A stretch of DNA of 18,657 nucleotides from a virus (IMGVR_UViG_2529293015_000004:1-18657); one strand, 5' to 3'; shown: positions 1-18,657, counted from the first letter of the stretch. Program-made: numbers and translations. Notes: generated by a model from the letters alone, not told the origin.

Positions 1-91
1 GAAAAGGTTAAGTACAGCCGCATCAGTTACGCGCAGCCGTAAAACCAAGAAGGGGCAGCCAGTAAACGACAACCCCGAAAGCGCGCAATAA
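1..91 (+). CDS. 3' end of a plus-strand CDS whose start lies upstream of the window (last 29 codons ...RSRKTKKGQPVNDNPESAQ, stop TAA 89-91)
   Basis: Open frame from the window edge to TAA at 89-91; convergent with the minus-strand gene ending at 124, with a hairpin between them. Identity cannot be settled from 29 codons. Confidence 0.3.
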   Translation, partial: KRLSTAASVTRSRKTKKGQPVNDNPESAQ

Positions 92-1236: not shown

Positions 1237-1454
1237 AGTCCCTCCTGAGCAGAAGCGTTAACAGGGAGGCACCAGTAACTGAGAGAATTGCGTGAATCAG
1301 TGGAAAAACGGGCAGAGAAAATACATGGGGCGTCAGGAAGCTGAGAACGTGCCTCATCTTCTGTCGGTGCAATAACGAAGTGATAGTGACGTTTTTGGCA
1401 GGAGTAAAAGCGCCAGATAAATTCAGGATGAGCAGGGGTAGGGATAGTAGCCAC
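1233..1454 (-). CDS. icd: Small protein (73 codons, GTG start) translationally coupled to ant; Icd-like by size and position
   Basis: GTG start 8 nt downstream of AGGAGG; stop overlaps the ant start; 73 codons matches P1 Icd as recalled. An alternative 81-codon TTG-start frame (1211-1456) overlaps, so the frame choice is not certain. Confidence 0.4.
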   Translation of the reverse strand: MATIPTPAHPEFIWRFYSCQKRHYHFVIAPTEDEARSQLPDAPCIFSARFSTDSRNSLSYWCLPVNASAQEGL

Positions 1455-1479: not shown

Positions 1480-1570
1480 AAGGAGCTACCGCGTGAGGTC
1501 TCAATCTCAATGGCGGTAGCACTGACTGGGTTGAGACTACCGGCGCAAAAGGGAACCGGCCTGCCTTTCG
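1480..1570 (-). ncRNA. Structured leader upstream of icd/ant with antisense elements; candidate c4-like antisense RNA
   Basis: Nested inverted repeats (gctaccgc 1485-1492 / gcggtagc 1513-1520; ggtctcaatc 1495-1504 / ttgagac 1531-1537); 1545-1566 (gcaaaagggaaccggcctgcc) is near-complementary, in the transcript, to the icd ribosome-binding region (1460-1475); a second direct copy of ggtctcaatc lies at 1687-1696. Boundaries are approximate. Confidence 0.3.
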
Positions 1571-1639
1571 GCAGCCCAGCCAGCACTACCATTGATCTCT
1601 GAGCTAAACGCTACGTATGGCTGTGCGATGGCATGACAC

Positions 1640-1663
1640 AAAAAAAAGACGCTTTTGGCGTCT
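1640..1663 (-). terminator. Rho-independent terminator downstream of pacB
   Basis: On the minus strand: stem agacgc/gcgtct with 5-nt loop, followed by a run of 8 U (complement of A8 at 1640-1647). Confidence 0.5.
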
Positions 1664-1794
1664 GTGTCGCCTTTTGCATTATCCGGGGTCTCAATCCCGG
1701 CACCCATTTTAATGAGGTGCCTGATAAGCATAAACCGAAAATGCCTCAAGGCGCAAGAGGTCAGGTTCAATGTAACATCGGCAGTTAAAAAACA

Positions 1795-1811
1795 CAATTT
1801 ATTAGAGCAAA
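1795..1811 (-). promoter_or_regulatory. C1-type operator-like site (15/17 to ATTGCTCTAATAAATTT) at the pacB stop, upstream of the antirepressor module
   Basis: Plus strand reads caatttattagagcaaa, which is the reverse complement of the consensus with two edge mismatches. Confidence 0.45.
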
Positions 1812-1814
1812 TAT

Positions 1815-3299
1815 TCATTCATTAAGCCATGCCAGAGCTTCATCAACCTGCGCTTCGTCTTCGACGCTAAGCACTTCATCCTGGGGAACATAATCCGCCA
1901 GCATAGCGAAACAATATGTATCCCAATGGTCTGGTGAGTGCAGGTTGAGTTTTTTCTTCATATCCTCCTTACTCATCACCTTCCATTGACCTGCGGAGTT
2001 AATCCCTACAGGGATTTTCGACGCTTCCTCAATAGTTTCATTACCCTTATCCAGTCTCATACGACCAGATTTTACGGCCTCTGCGGCTTGAACGTTGGCA
2101 TAAGCACGTTTATCAAAGTACAGGCTCTTATCTTCACGGCTATGCATCTTTTTACCCCAGCGTATACGCTGTACGGTAATACCATAATACTCGTACATCA
2201 GATCCGCCGTTGCTTTACCCAGGCCATCGCCGTCTATCGCTATGGTGATATTTGGGAATCGCTCAGGATTACATTCTGCGAAAATTTTGGCGGCAAGCTG
2301 CGTTTCTGTAACGTCTGTGTATTCCAGCATTCGATAGTTGATTACACGGCGTTTATTTCGCTGGCCGGACACCATCATGATATTGATAACGGACTTATCC
2401 CGTCCCGTACCACCAGCAACGTCCACACATGCAAGCCAGCCCCATCCTTTGGCAATCTTGACTTTCCGCCGCGTTGCGCGTTCAACCTCATCACGTCCAA
2501 GAAGGAAGCCATCCTGTGATTTAGGGAATAGGCCGCGTACCTTAATCATGTACATAGGGTTATCACGCCCGCCGTACTCCGCCAGCTTCATTTTGATAAA
2601 TGCTGGCGTTACCAGCGGTGATTCCTCACTGTTAAGCGTGATCGCCGTATAAACGCCATCAGGGTTACCAGGACGCTTGGCCAGTTTATGGTGTGTATCG
2701 TAGAAATAGCCGCTTGGGCGTGTAGGCTGTGACAGCAATAAGATGCGGTTATCCTGTCCAGTAAGAGCACCGGTGATGATACCGAAAGCTCTATCACTGA
2801 CACCGGAGGCTTCATCGATAATATACAGAAGATGATCTGCGTGTTCACCGGCGAGAGCTTCTTCACTTCCCAGACGAAAGCCCTTCGGTACTACAGTCCA
2901 TACACCTTTACCAGTAACCTCATAGAAAGCGGTTTCTGTCAGAACAAAATAATCAGCAAGCCATGGGAAACGGCTGGTGGCAGTAGCCCAGTTTATCTTG
3001 ATGTACTTGAATATACCGGTCATTACCTGCTGAATTTTGTTCGCAACGATAATAGCGCGGGCACCGGGATACATGATTATGAACAACATGATCATGATAG
3101 AAGTCATGTCTGATTTCCCGGTACCGTGACCAGACGAAACAGATGTCTTGCTACCCTGTTCCTGCACAGACTCAATAATCAGATCCTGCTGCCAGGTAGG
3201 TGTTTTGCCGAACAAAACATCAGCGGCCGCAATCCAGTCATAACGATATAGCGCCACCAGCTCGCGCCAACGTGGATCCGTTACGCAACTTCTGGCCAT
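1815..3299 (-). CDS. pacB: Terminase large subunit (PacB-like, 494 aa)
   Basis: 494-aa ORF immediately downstream of and overlapping pacA (ATGA at 3299); position and size match P1 PacB as recalled; no terminase motifs were individually verified. Confidence 0.8.
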
Positions 3300-4492
3300 T
3301 AATCATCATCCCCGTATAGCTTGCGGGTAACTTCTTCGTCTTCCTCCTCGTCTTCGTCCAAGTCTTGTTCCAGCCATGGGTCGTTTGATACACCTTCAGT
3401 ATCAACATCTCCATAACCGCCTGTATCAACGATATCGGCGATTTCTTCCCTACGCTGCTCAATCCACAATGCGGCATCGGCGCGGCGGTTGGCGGCCCGT
3501 TCTCGCGCAACTTTGTCCAGATCTTCAAGAGAAGGGCCACCGACGGCTGTTTGCCTTTCCTCATCATCGGTATTTGTCTTAGGAGCACGCAGATCGGCTT
3601 TGATTTGCTCCAGCATCAGGGGCGGCACTTTTCCACCATGCGCCTCGATGAATTCAGCTGCTTCCAGCACTGACCAGTTATTTTCACGCTTTCGTTCGTA
3701 TGCCAGCTTAACAATGCCAGCTTGCCCCATAGACAAAGCGTGCTTTTCCGCCTCCCGGCTTTCTTTTCGATAGTTATTCCGGATGCTGTAAATGGTGTTG
3801 ATCAGGCTGCTTATCTGCGCGGAACAGCTGTTTAGCATGCTCGCGATACGGTATTCAGGCGGAGTACCTTCTTCATCGTCTTTTTGCTGATCGCGCATTT
3901 CCTGCACCAGGCGAATACACGTATCCCTGGCGTTCTCCAGCATAAGGAGATGAGAAAGAGACTTTTCAAGAAGAGTGGTTTCCAGAACATCGGCCCCGGA
4001 CCGACGCAACATAGCGCGCGCGGCCTTCCGCGCTTCAACGTTATCTATCAGGTAATCGCCAGCTTCGAATTCAAAGCGTTCACCATCATCATCCAGGGTG
4101 TCGCGTTCCAGGCGATCACGTAAGGTCCGGTGGGCGCGGGTGATCACGTCATGATCATCTGAACGATCATTTATGCGCTTATTTTGGCGCTTCGCATTCT
4201 CGACTGCGGCACTGACAACGGCATTAACTCTCTGTTTTTCCGCTATTTCAGCCGCAATATGATCACCTGCATGTTGATCATTAGAGTGATCAATGATCAT
4301 GCTTTTTAGTGGCTTCCTGACTGGCTTATTTGGCTTGCGGCTGTCCGCAGTCCTAGTGTCTTCTTTGAAGGCACGGAGATAACGACGTGCGGTATTAGGG
4401 TTAAGATTAAACTCGGCGGCATACTGTGCGATGGTGTAACCACCATCTCGCGCCAGGCGAGCAAAATTCTTCTTGTGATCGTCCCAGGTCAC
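3299..4492 (-). CDS. pacA: Terminase small / pac-recognition subunit (PacA-like, 397 aa)
   Basis: 397-aa ORF with an N-terminal HTH-like segment ([21 protein letters not shown]) and acidic C-terminus; contains the pac-like hexamer clusters internally; size matches P1 PacA as recalled. Confidence 0.75.
4141..4299. other. pac-like packaging site: seven TGATCA/GATC hexamers in clusters of 3 (4141-4170) and 4 (4260-4299)
   Basis: Hexamers at 4141, 4152 and 4164 on one side and 4260, 4275, 4287 and 4294 on the other, about 90 bp apart, inside pacA; the span (~159 bp) and 3+4 arrangement match the described P1 pac site. Confidence 0.6.
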
Positions 4493-4577
4493 TTATGCTT
4501 CCTTTCGTAAAAACTCTTTTTGACGCGAGGGTAACGAAAGTCACATGTCAAAAGGCCCGGAACGGGCAAGCAATCAA

Positions 4578-5030
4578 TCAGATACGTGCGGATGTGGCAT
4601 TACCGTAATGACGGTGCTGACGGGCCACCTTATTGAAAAGTTGACGCGCCATTACCCAAGGCTGGTGCTCCCGGCGTTCCTTTTCGTCCTGCGTCATATA
4701 GAGTTCGTTCTGGAGTTTTTCATCAAACCGGCGCGGCGCGCGGCTGCGGCGAAAGAATTCAGGATTCAAAGAGTGGATCTGAAATCTACGTGGGCGTGTA
4801 CTGTCATCAATCAAAACAGACGAATACTTAGACACAGCGATAGCCTTTAAGCGCAGATAAACGTCGCGCTTATCGACATCCAGATGCGGGTATTCCTTTT
4901 CAAGGATTGCTGCGAGTTCTTTCGCTGATAGAAGAGACTTAGTGCGGATCATGTAATCCGCAATCTCATACGATGTTATTCGTGAGTGATTTATTTCCAT
5001 GAAGTGGCGTCCCTGCCAGTTAAGTAACAT
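4578..5030 (-). CDS. 150-aa phage protein in the position of the P1 late-promoter activator (Lpa / gene 10)
   Basis: ORF directly upstream of pacA on the same strand, with an operator-like site upstream; assignment is by synteny and size only. Confidence 0.4.
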   Translation of the reverse strand: MLLNWQGRHFMEINHSRITSYEIADYMIRTKSLLSAKELAAILEKEYPHLDVDKRDVYLRLKAIAVSKYSSVLIDDSTRPRRFQIHSLNPEFFRRSRAPRRFDEKLQNELYMTQDEKERREHQPWVMARQLFNKVARQHRHYGNATSARI

Positions 5031-5100
5031 CCTGTCACCTACTGATTAGCCCATGTCAACTAATCAACGTGGAATATAATACCCTCTATTAAATAAATAG

Positions 5101-5117
5101 CAACACATTAGAGCAAT
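5101..5117 (-). promoter_or_regulatory. C1-type operator-like site (13/17; core ATTGCTCTAAT exact) upstream of the Lpa-like gene
   Basis: Plus strand caacacattagagcaat; lies about 70-90 bp upstream of the 4578-5030 gene start. Confidence 0.4.
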
Positions 5118-5118
5118 T

Positions 5119-6162
5119 TTATCTAACGCTCGACGAATGACTTGTGATAACGCCGACTCCAAGCGCGTAATCAAAGAACAATCGTTGATGCATCGCCAGC
5201 CTACCGTGCGTCTTCTCCCAATTATCGCGGTCACGCTCAATATCACGCTGGCATGACTGGCACAGAGGAATTGCGTAAATGTCATGCGCGCATAATCGAC
5301 TATGACGAACGATATAAGGCGTAATGTGAGCGCCAGCTCCCGCCGCTCCACACCCACAACATGGACGTGAAGCAACAAAGTCCATGTACTCAGGTAATTT
5401 TAGCGATTGCAGTTTTGGTATTTTGAAATGCGCCATGCCAGGGTCGGAGTCAACATCCACAGGGCATACTTTTGCACGCATCGGCGCGGCGCGTTCTTCC
5501 ATCATCTGAACATATGCTGTAGCGCGATCGTCATACGGGCGAATATCCGCCTCTTTCAGAGGCCCGCTATCCTGCGTTGCAGTCTTAATCTTATTTATTG
5601 ATATACGGCAGACTTCTTCCGGCATCAGGTGCATCATGTCGCGCATGAAAGCCCACCAGCACAGTTCCTGAATACTTAAATCATGGCCATCTGAAAACCC
5701 CATTTCCTGACGGGCGACATCCAGTATCCAGTTAACGCGATTATTATGCAGCGTTTCTTTCAGCTCATTAAAACCACGCATCCGGTAATGGTTATCGTGA
5801 TGCCAGCACAACAACACCGCGCTATTGTCTCGTTCAGCGTGGACAATATGGTTGTCACACCAACTACGATCTGCGGTCTGGCATTGCCCCTCTTTCCTGC
5901 GCAACCACGCCACCAGCGAGTCAATTCCACCAATACGGCGAAACAGTTCATCGCTGTTAAAAAACGGCTGCAACGCCTCATTTGTTGCCATGGTTTGCTC
6001 GGAAACAACGAGGCCGTCGTCCATGTGCTCGATCAACTCACGCGGCACCGGCTCCATAATAAATTTACGGCCAGCCTCCACCAGCTTTCTGACTTCCTGA
6101 TCCACTTTGAATGTGGCGACGCCAAGCTCTTTTTGTACAAAGGGAGTAATTACGGCTTTCAC
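5119..6162 (-). CDS. 347-aa phage protein with HNH-like motif and Cys-rich C-terminus (PdcB-like position)
   Basis: Motif ...[25 protein letters not shown]... resembles an HNH nuclease core; C-terminus has ...RPCCGCG...H...C..C..C. Confidence 0.5.
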
Positions 6163-6189
6163 ATCACACCTTTCATCACTGATTGGGCT

Positions 6190-6369
6190 TTATCTGCTGC
6201 CCGGCATTCTCTGTTTAAGCACAACCATTTCCTGACGGCATAACACAGCAATAGCGGTCCTGGCACCAATTTGCTTACCAACCAGGTATTGCTTTACCTC
6301 GCGGCGACTCACGCCATCAAGAAGCATCTTTAACGCTTCACGGGACAACTTGTTGTATTTACGTGCCAT
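6190..6369 (-). CDS. Small protein (~59 aa from the ATG at 6369; PdcA-like position)
   Basis: ORF between doc and the 347-aa gene; the ATG at 6369-6367 avoids overlap with doc; basic, possibly HTH-like. Confidence 0.35.
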   Translation of the reverse strand: MARKYNKLSREALKMLLDGVSRREVKQYLVGKQIGARTAIAVLCRQEMVVLKQRMPGSR

Positions 6370-6373
6370 TAAT

Positions 6374-6754
6374 CTACTCCGCAGAACCATACAATCTACG
6401 TAACGTGTCGGCGACAGAAGATACAGATATCTCTCCGGTCGCAGCCTCTACGGTAAGGTCTGCCAGTTCAGGTGAATCAAATACCTGCACCCCATTACGG
6501 CGTAGAAATAGCAGCGCACTGTTTAGCGCGGTACGCTTATTGGCATCATTGAATATATGCCCTCTCGCTGTAGCCACCAGGTAGGTGGCAGAGACTTCGA
6601 AAAGGTCGGTGATCTCTTCGTAGGCAACTCTGGCCTGAACTCTCCCGATAATGGCCTCTGCCCTACCCGGATCTGACATTCCCGGCAGGCCGCCGTAGCG
6701 GCTTATATTCGCATCATGAAGCGCAATAAGTTCTTCCGGTGATATATGCCTCAT
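6374..6754 (-). CDS. doc: Doc toxin (Fic/Doc family kinase), 126 aa
   Basis: 126 aa with the Doc/Fic motif HIFNDANKR; immediately downstream of and overlapping the 73-aa Phd-like gene; sequence is recognised as essentially P1 Doc (from memory). Confidence 0.9.
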
Positions 6755-6975
6755 TATCGGTTAACCAGTTCCTTGTTGGTGGAGTCCAGGGTGTCAAACA
6801 GGGATGCAAATTCAGCATCCAGCGCCGCTTTTTTGTAGGCTTCGAAAGTAGCCTTGCTGACAATTACTGCTGGCTCACGGCCTCTGCGGGTGATTTCAAC
6901 CTCTTCCCCGGCCTCAACATTGTTGAGCACTTCAGAAAGATTGCCGCGCGCGGTACGGAAGTTAATGGATTGCAT
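6754..6975 (-). CDS. phd: Phd antitoxin, 73 aa
   Basis: 73-aa [44 protein letters not shown]..., recognised as Phd; GAGG Shine-Dalgarno 6 nt upstream; stop overlaps doc start. Confidence 0.85.
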
Positions 6976-6984
6976 AAATACCTC

Positions 6985-7012
6985 GTGTACTCGTTATGTG
7001 TACACAATTATA
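6985..7012 (-). promoter_or_regulatory. phd-doc promoter/operator: -10 TATAAT (rev-comp of 7007-7012) followed by palindrome TGTGTACACA (6997-7006) and a GTGTAC half-site (6985-6990)
   Basis: Perfect 10-bp palindrome between the -10 hexamer and the Shine-Dalgarno, a typical autorepression operator position. Confidence 0.45.
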
Positions 7013-7151
7013 AACTTCACAGGCATAAAGCACCAGCACTTTGCGGCTTAACAAAACTCCAGGCAGGTCATTCATAGCCTAATGTCTGAACTGTTAAAGC
7101 CACCAAGTTGTTGTAGAATCACATCCAATTACATAAGCCTGAAATAAGTGG

Positions 7152-8714
7152 ATGAAAATGACAAGTATTCAACAACGTGCAGAGCTTCATCGTCAAATCT
7201 GGCAAATTGCTAACGATGTCAGGGGTTCGGTCGATGGATGGGATTTTAAGCAATACGTTCTGGGCGCACTTTTCTACCGTTTTATCAGCGAAAATTTTTC
7301 CAGCTATATTGAAGCCGGTGATGACAGTATCTGTTATGCGAAACTGGATGACAGCGTAATTACTGATGACATTAAAGACGATGCCATCAAAACCAAAGGC
7401 TACTTCATCTATCCAAGCCAGCTTTTCTGCAACGTAGCTGCGAAAGCAAATACCAATGACAGACTGAATGCAGATTTAAACAGTATCTTCGTTGCTATCG
7501 AAAGTTCTGCTTACGGTTATCCTTCAGAAGCTGACATCAAAGGTTTGTTTGCTGATTTCGATACCACCAGTAACCGCCTGGGTAACACCGTTAAAGATAA
7601 AAATGCCCGCCTGGCTGCGGTTCTGAAAGGGGTTGAAGGGTTAAAACTTGGTGACTTCAACGAACATCAGATTGACCTGTTCGGTGATGCCTATGAGTTC
7701 CTGATTTCTAACTATGCGGCAAATGCCGGTAAGTCAGGCGGTGAGTTCTTTACACCGCAGCACGTCTCTAAGCTGATTGCACAACTGGCTATGCACGGGC
7801 AGACCAGCGTTAACAAAATCTACGACCCGGCAGCGGGTTCCGGCTCACTGTTGTTGCAGGCGAAAAAACAGTTTGATAACCACATCATCGAAGAAGGCTT
7901 TTTCGGTCAGGAAATCAACCATACGACCTATAACCTGGCGCGTATGAACATGTTTTTGCACAATATCAACTACGACAAGTTTGATATCAAGCTGGGTAAT
8001 ACACTGACTGAGCCGCACTTCAGAGATGAAAAACCGTTTGACGCCATCGTATCTAACCCACCGTATTCGGTGAAATGGATTGGCAGCGATGACCCGACGC
8101 TGATTAACGATGAACGTTTTGCCCCGGCTGGCGTTCTGGCCCCCAAATCCAAAGCTGACTTTGCGTTTGTACTACATGCGCTGAACTATCTTTCGGCCAA
8201 AGGTCGTGCTGCGATTGTCTGCTTCCCGGGTATTTTTTACCGTGGCGGCGCAGAGCAGAAAATCCGTCAGTATCTGGTCGATAATAACTATGTCGAAACC
8301 ATAATTTCACTGGCACCGAACCTGTTCTTTGGCACCACCATTGCAGTAAACATTCTGGTGCTGTCTAAGCATAAAACGGATACCAAAGTTCAGTTTATTG
8401 ACGCCAGCGAACTGTTCAAAAAAGAGACTAACAACAATATCCTGACCGACGCCCATATCGAACAGATTATGCAGGTATTTGCCAGCAAGGAAGATGTTGC
8501 TCATCTGGCGAAATCTGTCGCGTTTGAAGCCGTTGTAGCGAATGACTATAACCTGTCGGTGAGCAGTTATGTGGAAGTGAAAGATAACCGCGAAATTATC
8601 GATATTGCTGAGCTGAATGCGGAACTGAAAACCACGGTCAGCAAAATCGACCAGTTGCGTAAAGATATTGATGCGATTGTAGCTGAAATTGAAGGCTGCG
8701 AGGTGCAGAAATGA
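7152..8714 (+). CDS. hsdM: Type I R-M DNA methyltransferase subunit HsdM (520 aa)
   Basis: AdoMet motif [10 protein letters not shown] and catalytic NPPY (VSNPPYS); stop overlaps the hsdS start (ATGA at 8711-8714). Confidence 0.9.
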
Positions 8715-9913
8715 GCGAGTTAAGTTATCTGGAAAAATTGCTGGATGGGATTGAGGTTGAGTGGAAAACACTAGGCAGTATAGCTGAACTAAAGCGAGGC
8801 ACATCAATTACAAAAAAAGATGTTATTGATGGAACCATCCCCGTAGTCGCTGGCGGACGTACACCAGCTTATTATCATAATACTAGTAATCGCGACGGAC
8901 AAACAATTGTTATCGCAGGTTCTGGTGCGTATGCGGGATTCGTTAGTTGGTGGGAGGAACCAATTTTCGTATCGGATGCATTTACTGTAAAACCTCATAA
9001 TATTTTGTTACCACGATATTGCTATCATTTTTTGATGAATATGCAACAACAACTCCATGAGTTTAAGAGTGGTGGTGGTGTTCCGCATGTTTATCCACGT
9101 GATGTATCACCTATTTTGATACCAATCCCCTGCCCGGATACCCCAGAAAAATCCCTTGCCATCCAGTCTGAAATCGTGCGGATTCTGGATAAATTTACTG
9201 CACTTACCGCTGAGCTTACCGCTGAGCTTAACATGCGTAAAAAACAGTACAACTACTATCGTGACCAGTTGTTGAGTTTTAAAGAGGGTGAGGTTGAGTG
9301 GAAGACTTTGGGGGAAATTGGAGATTTTACATATGGATATGCAGCCAAAGCCATGGATTCAGGAGATGCCCGTTTCGTGAGAATTACTGACATAAATAAA
9401 GACGGGAAGCTATCGAAAGAAAACCCAATGTACGTTGAATTAAATGAGGAAAATGAGAAATATACCTTAGACAAAAATGATTTACTCATGGCAAGAACTG
9501 GGGCAACCTTTGGTAAAACAATGATTTTTGAAGAAGATTATCCAGCAGTATACGCTGGTTTTTTAATAAAGTTGAACCTAAATAAAACGATTATTAATGC
9601 CAAATATTACTGGCACTTTGCACAAAGTGATTTTTTTTGGGAACAGGCTAATAAATTAGTATCTGGTGGTGGGCAACCACAGTTTAATGCTAATGCACTG
9701 AAACAAGTCAGAGTACCTATTCCATACCCATCTCACCCTCAAAAATCTTTAGACGAACAGGGGCGTATTGTGGATATTCTGGATAAGTTTGATGCAATCG
9801 CAGCTTCCATCACCGAAGGTCTCCCGCGTGAAATCGAGTTGCGCCAGAAACAATACGAGTACTATCGTGATTTACTGTTCAGTTTCCCAAAACCTGAAAC
9901 TGTCAGTAATTAA
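8711..9913 (+). CDS. hsdS: Type I R-M specificity subunit HsdS (400 aa), two target-recognition domains
   Basis: Duplicated conserved regions (ILDKF...[15 protein letters not shown] and ILDKF...[15 protein letters not shown]); repeated EVEWKTLG at the start of each half; central TAELTAEL repeat. Confidence 0.85.
9203..9226 (+). repeat. Two tandem copies of 12-bp unit CTTACCGCTGAG (plus a 4-nt partial third copy to 9230) in the hsdS central conserved region, encoding LTAE-LTAE
   Basis: Read directly: cttaccgctgag cttaccgctgag ctta. Confidence 0.85.
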
Positions 9914-10034
9914 TTGACCGTTGCTACCGACCGGGCCACCTTAACATCCGGTCTGTATATAGACTATTTTTTACGCGCCGGAAGTCACTCTTAACGCCCT
10001 TCCGGCCCTTGCCAGACGGCACAAAGGATGCGCT

Positions 10035-13000
10035 ATGACTCATCAGACACACACCATTGCTGAATCCAATAACTTTATCGTCCTTGATAAGTACATCAAA
10101 GCTGAGCAAACAGGCGACAGCTATCAGAGCGAATCGGACCTGGAACGTGAACTAATTCAGGACCTGCGGAATCAGGGCTATGAATTTATACCCGTAAAAT
10201 CACAGTCAGCGATGCTGGCCAACGTTCGGGAACAGCTTCAGAACCTCAATGGTGTGGTGTTTAATGACAGCGAGTGGCGGCGTTTCACGGAGCAATATCT
10301 GGACAACCCGAGTGATGGTATTCTGGATAAAACCCGTAAAATCCATATCGACTATATCTGCGACTTTATTTTTGACGACGGGCGTCTTGAGAACATCTAT
10401 CTGATCGATAAAAAGAATCTCATGCGCAACAAAGTGCAGATTATCCAGCAGTTTGAACAGGCAGGTTCTCACGCTAACCGTTATGACGTAACTATCCTGG
10501 TTAATGGCTTGCCTCTGGTACAAATCGAACTGAAAAAGCGCGGCGTGGCGATTCGTGAGGCTTTCAACCAGATACATCGTTACAGTAAAGAGAGTTTTAA
10601 CAGCGAAAATTCCCTGTTTAAATATCTGCAACTGTTTGTCATTTCTAATGGCACCGATACCCGTTACTTTGCCAACACCACAAAGCGCGATAAAAATAGT
10701 TTTGACTTCACCATGAACTGGGCGAAATCAGACAACACGCTGATTAAAGACCTCAACGACTTTACCGCTACCTTTTTCCAGAAACATACTCTGCTGAATG
10801 TTCTGGTGAACTACAGCGTGTTTGACAGTAGTCAGACGCTACTGGTGATGCGACCGTACCAGATTGCAGCTACCGAACGAATCTTATGGAAAATCAACAG
10901 CTCCTATAAAGCGAAAAACTGGTCTAACCCCGAAAGCGGTGGCTTTATCTGGCACACCACTGGTTCCGGTAAAACACTGACCAGCTTTAAAGCCGCGCGT
11001 CTGGCAACTGAACTGGACTTTATTGATAAAGTCTTCTTCGTGGTCGACAGGAAAGACCTCGATTACCAGACGATGAAGGAATATCAGCGTTTTTCGCCAG
11101 ATAGTGTTAACGGCTCGGAAAATACAGCAGGTCTTAAACGAAATCTGGATAAGGACGATAACAAAATTATCGTCACCACTATTCAGAAACTTAATAACCT
11201 GATGAAAGCAGAAAGCGACCTGCCTGTATACAATCAGCAAGTGGTGTTTATATTTGATGAATGCCACCGCAGCCAGTTTGGAGAAGCGCAGAAAAACCTG
11301 AAGAAGAAATTCAAACGCTATTATCAGTTTGGTTTTACCGGCACACCTATTTTCCCGGAAAACGCTTTAGGCTCAGAAACAACCGCCAGCGTATTTGGTC
11401 GTGAATTGCATTCGTATGTAATTACCGATGCGATTCGTGACGAAAAAGTGCTCAAATTCAAGGTGGACTACAACGATGTGCGGCCACAGTTTAAGTCTTT
11501 AGAGACAGAAACTGACGAGAAAAAACTGAGTGCGGCTGAAAATCAGCAGGCGTTTCTTCATCCCATGCGTATTCAGGAAATCACGCAATATATCCTGAAC
11601 AACTTCCGCCAGAAAACCCACCGTACTTTCCCTGGTTCCAAAGGTTTTAATGCCATGCTGGCAGTAAGCAGCGTGGATGCTGCAAAAGCCTATTATGCGA
11701 CGTTTAAACGGTTACAAGAGGAAGCCGCTAATAAATCGGCTACCTATAAACCGCTGCGTATTGCGACAATCTTCTCCTTTGCCGCCAATGAAGAACAAAA
11801 TGCCATTGGTGAAATTTCCGATGAAACTTTTGATACCAGCGCAATGGACAGCAGTGCTAAAGAGTTTCTGGACGCTGCAATTCGTGAATATAACAGCCAT
11901 TTTAAAACTAACTTTAGCACCGACAGTAACGGTTTTCAGAACTACTATCGTGATTTAGCCCAGCGGGTTAAAAATCAGGATATCGATCTGCTAATTGTCG
12001 TGGGGATGTTCTTAACCGGCTTCGATGCTCCAACATTGAACACGCTATTCGTCGATAAAAACTTACGTTATCACGGCCTGATGCAGGCATTTTCCCGCAC
12101 TAACCGCATTTATGACGCCACTAAAACCTTCGGTAATATCGTCACTTTCCGGGATCTGGAACGCTCAACTATTGATGCCATAACGCTGTTTGGTGACAAA
12201 AACACCAAAAATGTGGTGTTAGAAAAGAGTTATACAGAGTATATGGAAGGCTTTACTGATGCTGCTACAGGTGAAGCTAAACGCGGCTTCATGACAGTAG
12301 TTTCAGAACTGGAACAACGGTTCCCTGACCCTACCAGTATTGAAAGTGAAAAAGAGAAGAAAGACTTCGTTAAACTGTTTGGCGAATACCTGCGTGCCGA
12401 GAACATCCTGCAAAACTATGATGAATTTGCCACGCTAAAAGCCCTGCAACAAATCGATCTTAGCGATCCTGTTGCGGTAGAAAAATTCAAAGCAGAACAT
12501 TATGTGGATGATGAAAAGTTCGCTGAATTGCAAACAATTCGTCTCCCTGCTGATCGCAAGATTCAGGATTATCGTTCTGCCTATAACGATATTCGCGACT
12601 GGCAGCGCCGTGAGAAAGAAGCTGAGAAAAAAGAGAAATCAACCACTGACTGGGATGACGTAGTTTTTGAGGTCGATTTGCTGAAGTCTCAGGAAATAAA
12701 CCTGGATTATATCCTTGGACTGATTTTCGAACACAACAGACAAAATAAAGGCAAGGGCGAAATGATCGAAGAGGTCAAACGCTTAATTCGTTCAAGTCTA
12801 GGGAACCGTGCTAAAGAGGGCCTGGTGGTCGATTTTATTCAGCAAACGAACCTGGATGATTTACCGGACAAAGCCAGCATCATTGACGCATTCTTTACGT
12901 TTGCTCAACGCGAACAGAAACGTGAAGCAGAAGCATTGATAAAAGAAGAAAATCTCAATGAAGAGGCGGCGAAACGCTATATTCGCACATCTTTAAAACG

Positions 13001-13151
13001 CGAATACGCCACCGAAAATGGTACAGGATTAAATGATACATTACCAAAACTTAGTCCGTTAAATCCGCAATATAAAACGAAAAAACAGACGGTTTTCCAG
13101 AAAATCGTCTCGTTTATTGAGAAGTTTAAAGGCGTAGGCGGAAAAATATAG
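10035..13151 (+). CDS. hsdR: Type I R-M restriction subunit HsdR (1038 aa)
   Basis: N-terminal PD-(D/E)xK-like region ([19 protein letters not shown]); helicase motifs [32 protein letters not shown]; separated from hsdS by 121 bp, consistent with its own promoter. Confidence 0.9.
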
Positions 13152-13230
13152 CCCAATTCGTGTTTTTCTTGCGGGTTCTTAATTAAACCCGCAAGAGCTC
13201 GTGGGGTTCCAAATGGCTAATATACTCCCC

Positions 13231-13317
13231 TTACCCATGCGCGACGATGCCGCCAAAAGTGATAGAGAACAGCCAGAAATAGATCGCGGCCATAATGATT
13301 TTGAATGCCGTGTTCAT
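13231..13317 (-). CDS. Candidate small hydrophobic peptide (28 aa, MNTAFKIIMAAIYFWLFSITFGGIVAHG)
   Basis: ATG preceded by AGGAG at 8-nt spacing; single predicted transmembrane-like helix; operator-like site and promoter-like elements ~85 bp upstream; below the ORF-track size cut-off. Confidence 0.3.
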   Translation of the reverse strand: MNTAFKIIMAAIYFWLFSITFGGIVAHG

Positions 13318-13345
13318 ATTTTCAGCTCCTGTGATTGATTGGATA

Positions 13346-13376
13346 CATGCCGCGTCTTGCGGCATGTTTTTATTTT
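13346..13376 (+). terminator. Rho-independent terminator (stem catgccgc/gcggcatg, loop gtctt, then tttttatttt); probably ends the hsdR transcript
   Basis: 8-bp perfect stem followed by a T-run on the plus strand, ~195 bp after the hsdR stop; lies in the 5' leader of the minus-strand peptide ORF. Confidence 0.5.
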
Positions 13377-13399
13377 CACTTTCTCTGTTTTAAAAATCA

Positions 13400-13416
13400 A
13401 GATTTATTAGGGCAAT
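13400..13416 (-). promoter_or_regulatory. C1-type operator-like site (15/17) overlapping the stop of the HAD-like gene, upstream of the small peptide ORF
   Basis: Plus strand agatttattagggcaat; on the minus strand ATTGCCCTAATAAATCT, followed 17 bp later by TAAAAC (possible -10). Confidence 0.4.
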
Positions 13417-13922
13417 TATTGTTGATGGAGAAGCGCATTTTCATACTCCCTGACCATTAACGTAAGTACGCCGTGTCTCCTGAAAACACGCGCCACTTCA
13501 ATCTTATCTTCCAGCGCGAACGCAATTTTACTTAGACCAATTTTCTTAAGGAGATCAATCTTTGCTGGGCCGTCATTTCTGTCATCGGTGGCAGGACGCA
13601 TAGATAGCAAAGGCTCAGCCCCATTTGTTACGTGCTTACGCAACCAAGCTCGTGTTTTATCCCTGGCTATCTCACAGCGCCCGGTTACAAACCAGAGCGT
13701 GTAAATGCCGGACAACTGGCGCACCATATCAATAACTGGAGTGATGGGAGCATCAGTGTCACAGGCAAGGTTAAACTCGTTCCAGTGCTCTGTTAATGCA
13801 CCTTTGCCAGGTGGTGGAAGTAAATGCAGCCTGTCTTCCGTTGCCTCTGATATCGTTCCATCAATATCTACTATGACGATGTACGGACGTTCCTGGTGTG
13901 CGTGTTTATTGAAAATACTCAA
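13416..13922 (-). CDS. HAD-superfamily phosphatase-like protein (168 aa)
   Basis: HAD motif I DIDGT near the N-terminus (IVIVDIDGTISE), downstream T and K motifs (FVTGR, KIDLLKK). Confidence 0.55.
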   Translation of the reverse strand: MSIFNKHAHQERPYIVIVDIDGTISEATEDRLHLLPPPGKGALTEHWNEFNLACDTDAPITPVIDMVRQLSGIYTLWFVTGRCEIARDKTRAWLRKHVTNGAEPLLSMRPATDDRNDGPAKIDLLKKIGLSKIAFALEDKIEVARVFRRHGVLTLMVREYENALLHQQ

Positions 13923-13994
13923 ATGCCCTCCTCATTGGACGAAAAAAATGCTGGTGGGCGCACTCCACCAGCATTAAAAGTGACACTGTAACTG

Positions 13995-15257
13995 TCAGCG
14001 AACATAAATAGTGCCGCCGTTCTCTTTTTCCCATGCATCGCTACGTGCATAGCAAACATCGAGAAGTCTTCTTGCCGCTGTTTCCTCTAAACCCAATTCG
14101 ACAACCAACTGCTCATGACGGCGGGTAACCACATCAAACAGGGTATGCAGCCCTTTAGCTGCCAGATCATCAATAAATTCCGGTTCGAACGGCAGCTCTG
14201 CCTCTGCCAACATAACCTCTTGCGCCCACTCAACTCGACGGACCAGTTCCGGGCGGCGGCTTTCCATCTCTTTACAGATCAATTCATGGAAGAACTCTAC
14301 CCAACCTTCCGGCTGGAACTCGCGGAAAATGGCCAACGGCTGGAAGTTTGGCATCAACCATTCGTTGATCCGGATATCAATGGCATAGCCCATGTCGCAG
14401 CAGAACTGATAAGCAAAGTCCAGCTTAGAAACGATATAAGGACGCTCGTTATTGAACTCTTTAGGCGATGAGATCCCATAAGCCAGGAGGCGCGGGAAGA
14501 AGGAGATTTGCCCTAACGTCGGATGAAGTTTGCTTGCAGGGAAACGGCGCTCAGTAATGCCATACATTTCCTTCTTGAGCGTCGCAAATTTGGCATTCTC
14601 ATTAACCAGCGCGGTAACCTCTGCTTTTTTATTAGCAAATGCCACGCGCGCCTCGCTTGCATCTTTAATAGTTTTTTTGAGCTGTTGGTTAAGGTCGGCG
14701 ACCTGCTTACGCAGTTCCTGTCGCTCGCTTTTAGCTTTGTTATAGCGTTTCTCAAGGTTAAAAGGATCAAGTTTCATGATCTCTTTATATTGAGATTTTA
14801 GCGTTGAAATCTGTGAGTTCCGCAGTTCAACCATCGCGGTCATTTCATTGAGTTTTGTTTCCAGCTCAATGCTTATACGTTCGGCATTATCAGCACGCTG
14901 GTTGGCGTCATGCGTCGCATCGTCGATCGCGTCCTGTTGCTGGCGTTTCAAATGTTCAATTTCCAGCTGAAGCTCTTCAATTTCTTTACCCTTCAGACCG
15001 AGATCCAACTGCATATTTTCAGCTGCATCTACCAGGGAGTTATGGCTATCAGCTTCTGCGTTATAAACATCAATAAGCTGTGCGTGAAGCATCTCCGCTG
15101 ACTGAACCGCATTATCAAAAAAACGTGCTGTGAGGTCATCACAACTAACGCGGCGTTGCGCGGCCCGGATGTTCTGGATAATGGCCGGGATACCGGCATT
15201 CAGGACATCAGGGATACATACATTTTCGATTGATTGGTTTTGTGCTGAAGTGCTCAT
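13995..15257 (-). CDS. Hypothetical protein (420 aa): long central coiled-coil-like region and a C-terminal domain of unknown function
   Basis: Long ORF translationally coupled to the upstream 72-aa gene (TGAaATG); heptad-like charged segments at roughly residues 80-220; no recognisable catalytic motif. Confidence 0.6.
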   Translation of the reverse strand: MSTSAQNQSIENVCIPDVLNAGIPAIIQNIRAAQRRVSCDDLTARFFDNAVQSAEMLHAQLIDVYNAEADSHNSLVDAAENMQLDLGLKGKEIEELQLEIEHLKRQQQDAIDDATHDANQRADNAERISIELETKLNEMTAMVELRNSQISTLKSQYKEIMKLDPFNLEKRYNKAKSERQELRKQVADLNQQLKKTIKDASEARVAFANKKAEVTALVNENAKFATLKKEMYGITERRFPASKLHPTLGQISFFPRLLAYGISSPKEFNNERPYIVSKLDFAYQFCCDMGYAIDIRINEWLMPNFQPLAIFREFQPEGWVEFFHELICKEMESRRPELVRRVEWAQEVMLAEAELPFEPEFIDDLAAKGLHTLFDVVTRRHEQLVVELGLEETAARRLLDVCYARSDAWEKENGGTIYVR

Positions 15258-15258
15258 T

Positions 15259-15477
15259 TCAAAGTTCCGTATTAGCTTGTGCTTCGGTCATTTTTCCTAA
15301 GTATGAAGGAGGAAGGACTACGCAATTTGTATCCAGTCCCTCACCTATGGCAGCCTGTAAAATTCTGGCTAAGGTGAGTCTCTTGTTGCGATACCTGGTG
15401 ATGACATGCCTGATACCGCCGGTCGGCGTAACAAAGGCGATCAGCCAGTAGTGATATTTCCGTCGGAATGGCCACAT
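15259..15477 (-). CDS. Hypothetical small protein (72 aa), first gene of an operator-controlled operon
   Basis: ATG preceded by AAGGTG at 5 nt; operator-like site immediately upstream; stop adjacent to the start of the 420-aa gene. Confidence 0.5.
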   Translation of the reverse strand: MWPFRRKYHYWLIAFVTPTGGIRHVITRYRNKRLTLARILQAAIGEGLDTNCVVLPPSYLGKMTEAQANTEL

Positions 15478-15490
15478 AGTGCACCTTGTA

Positions 15491-15507
15491 GATTGCTCTA
15501 ATAAAAA
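15491..15507 (+). promoter_or_regulatory. C1-type operator-like site (14/17: attgctctaataaaaaa)
   Basis: Directly upstream of the Shine-Dalgarno/ATG of the 72-aa gene; forms an inverted pair with the site at 15541-15557. Confidence 0.45.
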
Positions 15508-15527
15508 ACGTGATGAGTGTACATCAC
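15502..15527 (-). terminator. Rho-independent terminator (stem cgtgatg/catcacg, 6-nt loop, U6) ending the upstream operon
   Basis: On the minus strand the 7-bp perfect stem is followed by a run of 6 U; lies between the two operator-like sites. Confidence 0.5.
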
Positions 15528-15540
15528 GCTTTAAAAATAT

Positions 15541-15557
15541 GGAATTATTAGAGCAAT
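15541..15557 (-). promoter_or_regulatory. C1-type operator-like site (14/17), inverted relative to 15491-15507
   Basis: Plus strand ggaattattagagcaat; on the minus strand ATTGCTCTAATAATTCC, then a 17-bp spacer and TAAAGC. Confidence 0.45.
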
Positions 15558-15558
15558 A

Positions 15559-16260
15559 TTATTCTGATTCTCGCTCAAAAAATGAGCTGATAAGGGGAAG
15601 CCAATCCTCTGACACTTCGCGAGGTCGCGGTTTGCCGTGGAAAAAGATTATTCGGCAGTCTTTTGGTAATGCCCCATTCCCCCTGGAGTAACGCGCGCTC
15701 GCATATTTTGAACCAGGTTCCACAACATCGGCCTTGTAACTTACAAACCATCCTGGATACAGATCCTGAAATGCTGGTGTATCATCGCCCATAACCTTTC
15801 GTAAGAACCCCTGGTCACCCCAACACTCAGTAGTGACACAACGAGAAATCCAACCTTCCGGATCTTGCCAGAATGAACTCCAGATATGCGCTTTAACACT
15901 ATTTGGTATCCACAGGGCACCGCTGCCACGATATTGTGGATGGTAAAAATCCCTAAGCATGGTGAAGCTGGTTGGTGGATGCTCTAGGATTGGGCGTATA
16001 TCACCGGCAATAACCGTGTCCAAATCCAGATAGAACAGATCATCGGTTATATCCGGTCGGAACAACTCGATTTTCGCCCACCAGCCACGGCACTTTTGCC
16101 ACTGGTTGATCAATGGGACAACTTTGACGCCAGGTACATGTAAACGCTTCAGGTCTGTCAGGCAAATAATTTCATAGCCTTTTGGCAGTTGATTAACCAG
16201 CCACTGCACATCGGAAGCGTTATAGTCACCACCAGAGCGAAAAACTAAAGCAATCTTCAT
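15559..16260 (-). CDS. Putative GT-A fold glycosyltransferase-like protein (233 aa)
   Basis: DxD motif in a hydrophobic context ([13 protein letters not shown]) and a C-terminal FHGKPRP resembling the GT8 H-x-G-x-x-KPW region; ATGA coupling to the upstream phosphatase gene. Confidence 0.5.
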
Positions 16261-16934
16261 TCTGCACCATCACCTTTCACTTTCATCAATGTCAGGTTTC
16301 CGCAAAATACGGCACCAGTGTCGATATACTGCTGATTCCAGAATGTCTTCGGGCTTTTCACCGGAGTGTGACCAAAGATAAAACGATCTGCGCCCGAAAT
16401 TTCGCCACCAATATCATCCATCGAATCACTGATACGCTCGCGCGCCCAGACAACGTTGAAAAGCGGCACCTCCTTACCGAATTGGTATTCATTATCCGGA
16501 TAGTCGGCATGGGCTATAACGATAGTTTCTTGCCCGGTGTTCAACTCAATGATATAGGGCAGACGCTTTACCAGCTCCACCAGCGCCCAGGCTAATATTT
16601 CCTGATCAGTGTCCAGCATGAAGAACCATTGTCCGCCATTCATTAGCCAGTTATTCACGTTGCCATCTGGACTTAACGCATCAATCATCAGCCGCTCATG
16701 GTTCCCCATCACTGCCCTGAACCAGGGCATCTGCAATAGTTCCAGACATTCGACATTTTCAGTACCGCGATCGATAAGGTCGCCGACCGATATCAGTAAA
16801 TCCTGCGCCGGGTCAAAATCCACACGATGGAGTTCGGACATCAGTCTGGTGTAGCAACCATGCAGATCACCAACAACCCAGACATTCCTGTATTTGGTAC
16901 CGTCGATACGGTGATAAATTGTGGGTGCCATCAT
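16257..16934 (-). CDS. ppp: Lambda-type Ser/Thr protein phosphatase (metallophosphoesterase), about 225 aa
   Basis: Motifs GDLHG, GDLIDRG, GNHE; the likely start is one of the tandem ATGs at 16934/16931, which overlap the upstream gene's TGA (ATGATGG). Confidence 0.85.
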
Positions 16935-17557
16935 GTATTCTTCAGCCATTCTTTAAGAGTCATCTGCGGAATACCTCCCATTTTCCCGCATGAAACAACG
17001 TCAATCCGTTCACGCGCAGACTGGAATAACAAAGGCAGGTGACTTAGATTTTTTGGCGTGCCGCCGGAGTGAACGCGTGGTTCTTGTGTAGCGTCAACGC
17101 CCACCAGGGCGACATGTTTGAATCCGATATGGAAAGCCAGGTTCAGAGCACCATATGCACTATTGCCGCTGGCAATTTCATTCTCATCTTCGCAAAGTCC
17201 GAAATGAGCGGACCAGCGCCACGCCCACCACTCGGGAGAATTCGTATTTTTTGGCTCCATGCCGCGTTCAGCCACACGACGGAAGCACAGAACGCCATCT
17301 CTGACTTCACGTTCTTTAACATCGGGTAGTGCCATGCAATAACAAACACCACGGCGACGGCGGCCACGACCAACGCGCCGCATATTGTCTGGGGATGGAT
17401 CAAGGGTGAAAAAATAAGAAGCGCGGTTAAGCCAGTCGATGGCCCCATTGACCGCTATAATCGGCACTCCGCGCGGCGCAACAAAGTTTGCGGCGCTTGG
17501 GCCACTGCCGACGATAATAACGCGATCACTGCCTCTAAATTTATTCTTGGGAAACAT
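16931..17557 (-). CDS. Cst-II/MptE-like Rossmann-fold protein (208 aa), paralog B
   Basis: Motifs [27 protein letters not shown]...VALVGVD, paralleling sialyltransferase Cst-II (GNGPSL ... CN ... SG...LSGID) and MptE/DUF115-type proteins. Confidence 0.55.
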
Positions 17558-18117
17558 TGAATTGCACTGCTCCTACTTGCATTCAAAATATGTAAATCTG
17601 CGTGTTTTTTGCGGGTATCCAGGAACTGCTGTTGCCATTTTGAAATAGACACCTGCGTTGGATTCCGTAGTGCTTGAGGGTGCGCGCCATGCCAATGAAG
17701 GCCGTTTTGCAGAGAACAGTCATAGCCGACTAATACCACTACTTCAGCCCCTGATTCAGCAGCCAGACTGATAGCCTGCGCGCCGCTATTTACCCCTTCC
17801 GCCGGTCCACAATATCGCCTGTACTCCAACGAAAATGATTTCGCCGCCGCCAGGTTGGCTGTCACTTTGCGGAATCTCCCTCCCGGTATGGTGGATCCGT
17901 ATTGCTTCCACCATGACAAATCACCGGCGTATAAGGCATAAATGTCATCGAACATCTGCCAGGAATTGTTAACCGCGATGATTGAACAGCCAGTTTTTTC
18001 TATAGCAGCACAGTCCTCACGAGTGAGTGACGGACCGCTACCGACACAAAAAACAGTCCTAGTCGCCCTGGGTGGTATGTTCATTCTCAGCTGCAAATTC
18101 AGCCTCCAGGCGAGCAT
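17455..18117 (-). CDS. Cst-II/MptE-like Rossmann-fold protein, paralog A (start uncertain: 18117 or internal ATG at 18084)
   Basis: Motifs VFCVGSGPSL, IIAVNN, NSGAQAISLAAESGAEVVVLVGYD; overlaps paralog B by about 100 nt. Confidence 0.55.
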   Translation of the reverse strand: MLAWRLNLQLRMNIPPRATRTVFCVGSGPSLTREDCAAIEKTGCSIIAVNNSWQMFDDIYALYAGDLSWWKQYGSTIPGGRFRKVTANLAAAKSFSLEYRRYCGPAEGVNSGAQAISLAAESGAEVVVLVGYDCSLQNGLHWHGAHPQALRNPTQVSISKWQQQFLDTRKKHADLHILNASRSSAIQCFPRINLEAVIALLSSAVAQAPQTLLRRAECRL

Positions 18118-18214
18118 TCATTTCAGCGATTACCGGGTCCACTACAGCATCTGTTTCCTGTTCATTACGCGGCATGATCGATGCCAGCGATTCATAATTA
18201 GCCTTGGATGACAC
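18059..18214 (-). CDS. Candidate small acidic protein (~51 aa, GTG start)
   Basis: GGGAGA Shine-Dalgarno 7 nt upstream of GTG at 18214; below the ORF-track cut-off; overlaps the longest version of paralog A. Confidence 0.25.
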   Translation of the reverse strand: MSSKANYESLASIMPRNEQETDAVVDPVIAEMNARLEAEFAAENEHTTQGD

Positions 18215-18280
18215 GATTATTCTCCCGATGTTAATGTGCGCTATATCAAATGGCGCATATGCACTAATTAATTTATTATT

Positions 18281-18613
18281 TTAAGCAGCATACAACCACT
18301 TGTCGCCGTTCAATACATGCTCAATAGCCTCACCCTTTTTAAGGCTTATGTATTCCAGGATGGCGGTTATCGCTTGTTCTGCACCATACGCAAGAACGAC
18401 GTAGTAACCTTCCTCTCTAAGCCTGCGCATCCAGGCGATCTGCTCTTTCGTCGGGGCTTTACCATTTGGTTCTTTAAGCTCAATTCGCATGCCGTGATAA
18501 ATACCGCATGCTTTATCGAGACTCATGTCCGGATAACCTTTTTTCTGTCCTTCAGCCTTCATTTTCCCGGCGGTTGCTTTTGAACGTTTCCCTCCGTTAG
18601 GCGTTGCATGCAA
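18281..18613 (-). CDS. VRR-NUC-like (PD-(D/E)xK) nuclease domain protein, 110 aa
   Basis: G-YPD ... IELK ... EQIAWMRRL pattern typical of VRR-NUC domains. Confidence 0.5.
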   Translation of the reverse strand: MHATPNGGKRSKATAGKMKAEGQKKGYPDMSLDKACGIYHGMRIELKEPNGKAPTKEQIAWMRRLREEGYYVVLAYGAEQAITAILEYISLKKGEAIEHVLNGDKWLYAA

Positions 18614-18657
18614 CAGCTCATAGATGTCAGGGTGCTTGCGTTCGAAGTAATCAAAAA

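Follow-up and report, generated by a model that had tools for sequence, protein, structure and literature searches.

In phage P1 the sites of the immunity repressor C1 are asymmetric, 17 bp long and placed so that they overlap or abut sigma-70 promoters; Lxc (Bof) enhances the binding, and the dispersed early and lytic operons of the lysogen are held off. The operator consensus, ATTGCTCTAATAAATTT, and the dispersed-operator model are quoted in PMC8546580. The immI region, which in P1 lies between sim and kilA, is built in the same way in P1 and P7: an operator overlaps the -35 of a first promoter, a second promoter comes next, and then follow a leader with the a1/b1 sites, the C4 RNA (Rfam RF01695), the a2/b2 sites at the icd ribosome-binding site, an ATGA overlap and an internal Ant2 start. 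The Salmonella Gifsy-1 region isrK-orf45-anrP has a terminated isrK-family RNA before a small open reading frame (ORF) and an antirepressor gene, and according to Hershko-Shalev et al. 2016 (PMC4825925) translation is controlled there by this short RNA, which targets the read-through mRNA in trans. Here we analyze an 18,657-nt stretch of viral DNA (IMGVR_UViG_2529293015_000004:1-18657, the window in what follows, with positions counted from its first letter), which comes from a P1-like phage-plasmid (Punavirus) and runs in reverse relative to P1. Six sites in it are very probably, to judge by their sequence, operators of the C1 immunity repressor of this element. Five of them correspond to annotated P1 operators, so in that part the biology was known before. 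The sixth stands at the head of 1.7 kb inserted between pacB and c1, a complete second immI-type c4/icd/ant switch under its own predicted C1 operator.

The evidence comprises the enrichment of the motif, the orthology of five sites, the RNA genes, the covariation of loop and target, and the conservation and context-dependence of the sixth operator. The asymmetric consensus was searched against a background of dinucleotide shuffles of the window. With at most three mismatches it has 4 matches where 0.14 are expected (none of 200 shuffles reached 4), and with at most four it has exactly 6 against 0.95 +/- 0.96 (shuffle maximum 5; none of 300 reached 6), while no signal is left in the window at up to five mismatches (8 observed, 7.0 expected). 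These are the same six sites that an initial annotation of this DNA had listed, and its expectations that the motif is more frequent than the base composition would give and that every site is intergenic both hold, as the intergenic DNA, 1372 nt in all (7.4% of the window), contains all six. Two of its details change: the site it placed at 15491-15507 lies at 15492-15508, and 18258-18274, which it called the weaker one, is strong on a weight matrix, the weakest being 5101-5117.

This matrix uses the 20 half-sites that the P1 record (AF234172) annotates for its operators, with the strand of Omat corrected. Omat (AF234172 2628-2645) stands on the minus strand in the GenBank record and fits the consensus only on the plus strand, as CATGCACTAATAAATAT. 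The scores are 22.7 bits for 15541-15557(-), 21.9 for 1795-1811(-), 21.5 for 15492-15508(+), 20.0 for 13400-13416(-), 19.5 for 18258-18274(+) and 12.7 for 5101-5117(-). At 14 bits or more there are 5 sites against 0.12 expected and a shuffle maximum of 2. Because a matrix restricted to the 15 P1 operators without a homologous site in the window returns the same five, at 19.9-21.7 bits, there is no circularity in the test. The five window sites (19.5-22.7 bits) lie inside the range of accepted P1 operators, 14-28 bits, below which only the Oc1b half-site falls, with 5-8 bits; 5101-5117, at 9-13 bits, is under most accepted operators and over Oc1b. The strong score of 18258-18274 comes about because its deviations are tolerated in real operators. 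A matrix scan of the window for further operators gave none above chance, except for an inverted half-site that overlaps Oppp.

Five of the sites stand at exactly homologous positions to the P1 operators Oppp, OpmgRa, OpmgRb, OpmgT and Olpa, which AF234172 annotates as 'phage repressor C1' binding sites with overlapping promoters, and the base-level alignment has 0-1 substitution in each (Table 1). With their P1 counterparts they share position, orientation, promoter overlaps and the 17-bp consensus. All promoters given here are predictions, except for those that the P1 record calls established. The -35 is inside Op86a and Op88 and overlaps the 3' end of Op94 and of the sixth site, and Op86b and Op83 are downstream of a -10. 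It had been proposed in the initial annotation that TTGC(T/C)C could double as a -35 at 17 bp from TAAA(A/G)C, and the two elements in question coincide with promoters annotated in P1, namely P2pmgT (TTGCCC, 17 bp, TAAAAC at 13415-13387) and PpmgR (TTGCTC, 17 bp, TAAAGC at 15556-15528). The Plpa -35, TTGCTA (5103-5098), overlaps Olpa upstream of lpa; OpmgRa is upstream of pmgR (15259-15477) and pmgS (13995-15257), with OpmgRb inverted between the PpmgR -10 and the pmgR start; and Oppp is in the control region of the pmgN-pmgO-pmgP-ppp-pmgQ operon, which runs from 18214 down to 15559 on the minus strand. Site 5101-5117 scores low because of its A14G substitution, and its identification rests on positional homology to Op94 and not on the score.

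The repression of lpa, pmgR-pmgS, the Op88 promoter and the pmgN-pmgQ operon by C1 is transferred from P1 by this orthology. Olpa/Op94 would control lpa, the activator of late promoters; Op86a and Op86b together would control pmgR-pmgS; Op88 would control the promoter that drives pmgT in P1; and Op83 would control the pmgN-ppp-pmgQ operon. C1 binding at the sites of this element, promoter activity and the direction of regulation are all things that we infer. The targets named in the initial annotation can now be given their P1 names, in that its 'Lpa-like gene' is lpa, its '72/420-aa operon' is pmgR/pmgS and its 'small peptide' is a 28-aa ORF downstream of OpmgT/Op88. Its idea of one lysogeny-repressor regulon is supported by the orthology to the P1 operators, and what it describes is not new, being the described P1 C1 regulon.

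A few further features were seen around these sites. The -10 of PpmgR (15528-15533) carries an A-to-G change relative to P1, TAAAAC to TAAAGC. Between Op86a and Op86b there is a hairpin and then a U-run (~15532-15502, minus strand; AAAGCGUGAUG...CAUCACGUUUUUU), with -15.7 kcal/mol for a 58-nt stretch folded (z = -3.4) and with Op86b overlapping the U-tract. Given that the predicted PpmgR start is inside the stem, this hairpin most likely terminates the pmgN-pmgQ operon, which lies upstream. The inverted half-site near Oppp, CTTAAAATAATAAATTA at 18269-18285 (-), has 10-12 bits and an 11 bp offset from Oppp, an overlap geometry as in the bivalent operators Obanab and Oc1ab, the latter with Oc1b as its weak half. 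P1 has the same sequence (79424-79440) but an Oppp annotated as monovalent. A predicted -10, TAAAAT (18283-18278), is inside the half-site.

At 1795-1811, the sixth site, a second immI module has a predicted operator of the Op51 type, and both the site and the RNA content of the module appear to be undescribed. The site begins 4 nt past the pacB stop codon, at the head of the insertion. P1 has no operator at this place, and the surrounding region aligns with P1 Op51/P51a beyond the operator itself. The predicted P51a-like -35 overlaps the 3' end of the operator, as the -35 of P2c4/P51a overlaps Oc4 in P1. A TTGCGC/TATGCT element further downstream is, on its sequence and placement, a probable P51b-like promoter: it ends 7 nt ahead of the 5' end of the isrK match, and P51b of P1 is placed likewise before the leader. 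TTGCGC and the -10 position are common to phage D6, whose -10 is TATATT. The initial annotation had put an antirepressor module under the repressor, and indeed the Op51-like operator heads a complete c4/icd/ant switch with its own antisense RNA.

The sixth operator is identical in JL22, RCS47 and 673R5. With the isrK core as an anchor we recovered 25 IMG/VR loci, 24 of them with enough upstream sequence. In 22 of the 24 the end of pacB precedes the module, and the operator is at exactly the same distance in all 22. Three variants of it occur across the pacB-linked loci (19.9-23.6 bits), with differences confined to positions 1 and 12, at which real P1 operators are variable too. The other two loci are D6-like, with the module not preceded by pacB, and have no operator, the best upstream matrix score being -5 bits. 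Phage D6 itself shares the isrK/C4/icd sequence at 92% identity, its upstream operator region is unrelated, and no site of 10 bits or more occurs anywhere in the 5.4 kb scanned.

The RNA part of the module is complete as well. Its leader passes the Rfam gathering threshold as isrK and not as c4-a1b1, unlike the leader of P1, which has 51 bits as c4-a1b1 and 35 bits, below threshold, as isrK. Since the P1 leader matches both families in this way, the isrK-like element is the counterpart of the a1/b1 leader. In the C4 RNA both a' (AGUCUCAA) and the b' loop (CCCUUUUGC) are single-stranded in the expected fold at -46.4 kcal/mol, and they have 7-8 nt of Watson-Crick complementarity at all four of the sites a1, b1, a2 and b2. 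The b' loop, b1 and b2 change together across four specificity types. The window, JL22 and D6 have the b' loop CCUUUUGC with b1/b2 GCAAAAGG, RCS47 has CCUUUGAC with GUCAAAGG, 673R5 has CCUUGGAC with GUCUAAGG (one G-U pair), and P1 has UCACUAAC with GUUAGUG(C/A). In RCS47 (~2848-3100) nothing but the b' loop, b1 and b2 is different from the window. In 673R5 (~2930-3120) the C4 stem is strongly diverged, with compensatory changes and new a and b sites, and a' and a1/a2 covary as well. At least three C4 specificity types are thus seen in the pacB-c1 module. Matched loop and target changes of the same kind distinguish the immI specificities of P1 and P7. The triple covariation of the b' loop, b1 and b2 shows clear selection on the downstream RNA circuit.

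The coding part follows the immI plan with one exchange. The icd stop overlaps the ant start (ATGA), and the internal Ant2 start is conserved (Met84, ATG 987-985, with AAGGAGG 8 nt upstream). Ant1 has the Pfam domains ANT/KilAC (107.6 bits) and ORF6N (66.6 bits); compared with P1 Ant, the central domain is swapped for the ORF6N domain. A GC-rich hairpin, ATGCCCGGTTGATGCCGGGCAT at 95-116, lies between the convergent ant (stop 124) and c1 (stop ~89-91), and is probably a terminator that stops transcripts of ant before they enter c1 in antisense direction.

By analogy with immI of P1, C1 at 1795-1811 would block the P51a-like promoter, while the downstream P51b-like promoter would keep supplying the leader and the C4 RNA. 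C4 would pair with a2/b2 across the icd ribosome-binding site, so that neither icd nor the coupled ant1/ant2 would be translated. Should C4 control fail, Ant would be made and C1 inactivated. The locus is like Gifsy-1 in its terminated isrK-family RNA before a small ORF and an antirepressor gene, and differs from it in being part of a P1-like plasmid prophage, in its C1 operator and in including a C4 RNA. By this likeness the terminated isrK-like RNA might, as IsrK does, act in trans, and serve as a C4 sponge through its decoy a1/b1 sites.

While the immI of P1 is between sim and kilA, the module of the window is between pacB and c1, and JL22, RCS47 and 673R5 carry both this module and a canonical immI. 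The canonical immI of JL22 has its own operator (TCTGCTCTAATAAATTT, 21.5 bits), a P7-like C4 and the b targets GATTGTG. The C4 a'/b' of the window module are unlike those of P1 and unlike those of this P7-like immI, and as the a'/b' of the two modules do not match, no cross-pairing is expected. The pacB-c1 module is present in ~450 plasmid records. In passages of Venturini et al. 2019 (PMC6906374) the insertion is given, for pTZ20_1P and RCS47, as 'two short hypothetical orfs and ... ant'; those passages make no mention of C4 or isrK RNAs, target sites or specificity variants, and the word 'operator' does not occur in the paper.

The simplest objection is that all the matches are chance 17-mers, AT-rich and without regulatory meaning, in intergenic DNA that is itself AT-rich. 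It can draw on the count at up to five mismatches, which is at expectation, and on the 5101 site, which taken alone is within the shuffled maxima (12.7 bits against a mean shuffle maximum of 10.5). Neither point accounts for six sites at up to four mismatches, for five sites of at least 19 bits where 0.12 would be expected even at a 14-bit threshold, for the intergenic position of all six, or for the exact coincidence of five with annotated P1 operators. The shuffles at several thresholds, the independent matrix and the orthology lead us to reject chance, to which we give practically no weight. It could also be that the sites are bound by a repressor of altered specificity and not by a P1-type C1, in which case the P1 operator set would not be transferable. 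Of c1 the window contains no more than the final ~30 codons, and directly ahead of the identical C1 tail the residues do differ (KRLSTAAS, in P1 KKVKSAAS). However, the final 25 residues encoded by this c1 are identical to those of P1 C1, the C1 of the closest relatives that carry the same pacB-c1 module, JL22 and RCS47, is identical to P1 C1 at 281-282 of 283 residues (~99%), the operators are nearly identical to those of P1, and D6, which has a different immunity, is without these sites. A changed repressor is therefore very improbable in our view.

More serious, though still unlikely, is the reading that 1795-1811 is an inert remnant of a recombined immI fragment, with the module silent or expressed from its own promoter independently of C1. 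The promoter-like element of the module is common to D6, which has no C1 operator, and among close relatives the operator is no more conserved than its flanks. Against this, the operator core TTGCTCTAAT is invariant in 23 copies with only positions 1 and 12 varying, the Op51/P51a overlap of operator and -35 is kept, the triple covariation points to selection on the RNA circuit, and the module is widespread in plasmid records. Phylogenetic footprinting of the sixth operator was tried and is uninformative; the informative contrast is its presence after pacB and its absence from D6-like loci.

Reading the six sites as C1 operators nevertheless has weaknesses, and the following points weigh against it. 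Across the 23 pacB-linked copies the entire 150-nt control region is highly conserved, and these copies are too similar to show a stronger constraint on the operator than on its flanks. The hexamers of Pa and Pb (the P51a-like and P51b-like elements) match weakly, and a generic sigma-70 scan does not list them. That scan is no richer than shuffles, with 26 promoters in the window against 27.7 expected, and so does not discriminate here: Plpa and a PpmgN-like promoter are among its hits, and the operator-embedded promoters annotated in P1 are missing from them, along with the proposed Pa and Pb. Among the orthologous sites, A14G lowers the matrix score of Olpa from 20.0 to 13.1 bits and may weaken repression, and in 19 sampled relatives the P1 form occurs in 17 and A14G in none. 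T6C in OpmgT hits the otherwise invariant core, with the same possible effect, and is shared by none of 4 sampled relatives. Together with the change in PpmgR, these substitutions could weaken C1 control or promoter strength in this element. Finally, the Op88 site may be a relic, since its promoter is no longer ahead of a substantial operon.

P1 (AF234172) covers 58% of the window at 95.6% identity, in blastn blocks of 92.5% and 98.5% identity, and phage vB_EcoM-673R5 and many E. coli, Salmonella and Klebsiella plasmids cover 95-98% of it at ~97% identity. Two blocks have no collinearity to P1. One, 91-1816, is the insertion that separates the stop codons of pacB and c1; in P1 no more than 25 bp lie between these. 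The other is 7052-13226, the type I hsd cassette. The coordinates of all features are collected in Table 1.

Table 1. Features of the window, with their P1 (AF234172) counterparts where these were found; former operator names are in parentheses.
Feature	Position	Strand	Description
c1 repressor gene, 3' end	1-91	+	rest of gene beyond the window; translation ends in SVTRSRKTKKGQPVNDNPESAQ and stop, like P1 C1 C-terminus
c1 3' end, P1 block	2-90		P1 93319-93232; local blastn, 94% identity
ant1 antirepressor gene	124-1236	-	370 aa; 57% identical to P1 Ant1, E = 1e-130
icd-like gene	1233-1454	-	73 aa, GTG start; 81% identical to P1 Icd, E = 1e-40
C4 target b2	1473-1466	-	GCAAAAGG; overlaps AAGGAGG ribosome-binding site of icd
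C4 target a2	1504-1498	-	TTGAGAC
C4 antisense RNA gene	1509-1596	-	Rfam RF01695, 75 bits, E = 2.4e-13, gathering score 45
isrK-like leader RNA	1642-1720	-	Rfam isrK, 57.9 bits, gathering score 50
Intrinsic terminator of isrK-like leader	stem 1663-1647, then T-run	-	
C4 target b1	1677-1670	-	GCAAAAGG; inside isrK-like RNA
C4 target a1	1694-1688	-	TTGAGAC; inside isrK-like RNA
Predicted second promoter, P51b equivalent	1727-1756	-	-35 TTGCGC, 18 bp, -10 TATGCT
Predicted C1-controlled promoter, P51a equivalent	1769-1797	-	-35 TTGTGT (1797-1792), 17 bp, -10 TACATT (1774-1769)
Sixth operator, Op51-like	1795-1811	-	TTTGCTCTAATAAATTG; 15/17 consensus match; 21.7-21.9 bits
pacB, pacA, lpa, pdcB, pdcA, doc, phd	1817-7051		P1 93204-87970; local blastn
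lpa	4578-5030		downstream of Olpa; Pfam BPP1_LPA, 193 bits
Olpa (Op94)	5101-5117	-	ATTGCTCTAATGTGTTG; P1 89904-89920, one substitution A14G
Type I hsd cassette	7052-13226	+	hsdM 7152-8714, hsdS 8711-9913, hsdR 10035-13151
pap, pmgS, pmgR, pmgQ, ppp, pmgP, pmgO, pmgN, part of pmgM	13227-18657		P1 84482-79052; local blastn
28-aa hydrophobic ORF	13231-13317	-	MNTAFKIIMAAIYFWLFSITFGGIVAHG; AGGAG ribosome-binding site; between Op88 and hsd junction 13227
OpmgT (Op88)	13400-13416	-	ATTGCCCTAATAAATCT; P1 84293-84309, one substitution T6C; P2pmgT -35 TTGCCC inside
OpmgRb (Op86b)	15492-15508	+	ATTGCTCTAATAAAAAA; identical to P1 82201-82217
OpmgRa (Op86a)	15541-15557	-	ATTGCTCTAATAATTCC; identical to P1 82152-82168; PpmgR -35 TTGCTC inside
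Oppp (Op83)	18258-18274	+	TATGCACTAATTAATTT; P1 79435-79451, one substitution C1T; 19.5-20.1 bits

In P1, pmgT through humD form the operon that follows Op88. In the window these genes are replaced by the hsdMSR cassette, which has junctions near 7051 and 13227, stands in opposite orientation, convergent with the Op88 promoter, and encodes an HsdR with an EcoR124-type C-terminal domain (Pfam). As a result the Op88 promoter reads only the 28-aa ORF, the sole ORF remaining between Op88 and the junction at 13227, and, because of the orientation of the cassette, this C1-controlled promoter points into the 3' end of hsdR. A terminator scan found no minus-strand terminator between the Op88 promoter and the hsdR 3' end; a hairpin and T-run at 13345-13367 would stop plus-strand transcripts from hsdR. 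The convergent arrangement might conceivably couple prophage induction to antisense interference with the restriction subunit. The DNA of the 28-aa ORF is 100% identical to P1 84392-84478, where it is unannotated, and for this stretch the P1 record notes 98% identity to plasmid R124/3, in the sequence that follows hsdR there. By tblastn the ORF occurs in 873 plasmids, 198 of them conjugative, with variation too small for a test of coding selection.

Most of this changes nothing, as five of the sites re-find the long-established C1 regulon of P1. The second module is different: it makes concrete and testable how the circuits of immunity and induction become diverse in these plasmids, several of them carriers of resistance genes, and it provides a natural set of antisense and target pairs that are not expected to cross-pair. 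We can suggest only tentatively, and would lean against it at present, that many P1-like phage-plasmids have two C1-operated c4/icd/ant switches with antisense RNAs unable to cross-pair. If this is true, these elements would have two independently gated routes to the inactivation of C1 and a second axis of heteroimmunity.

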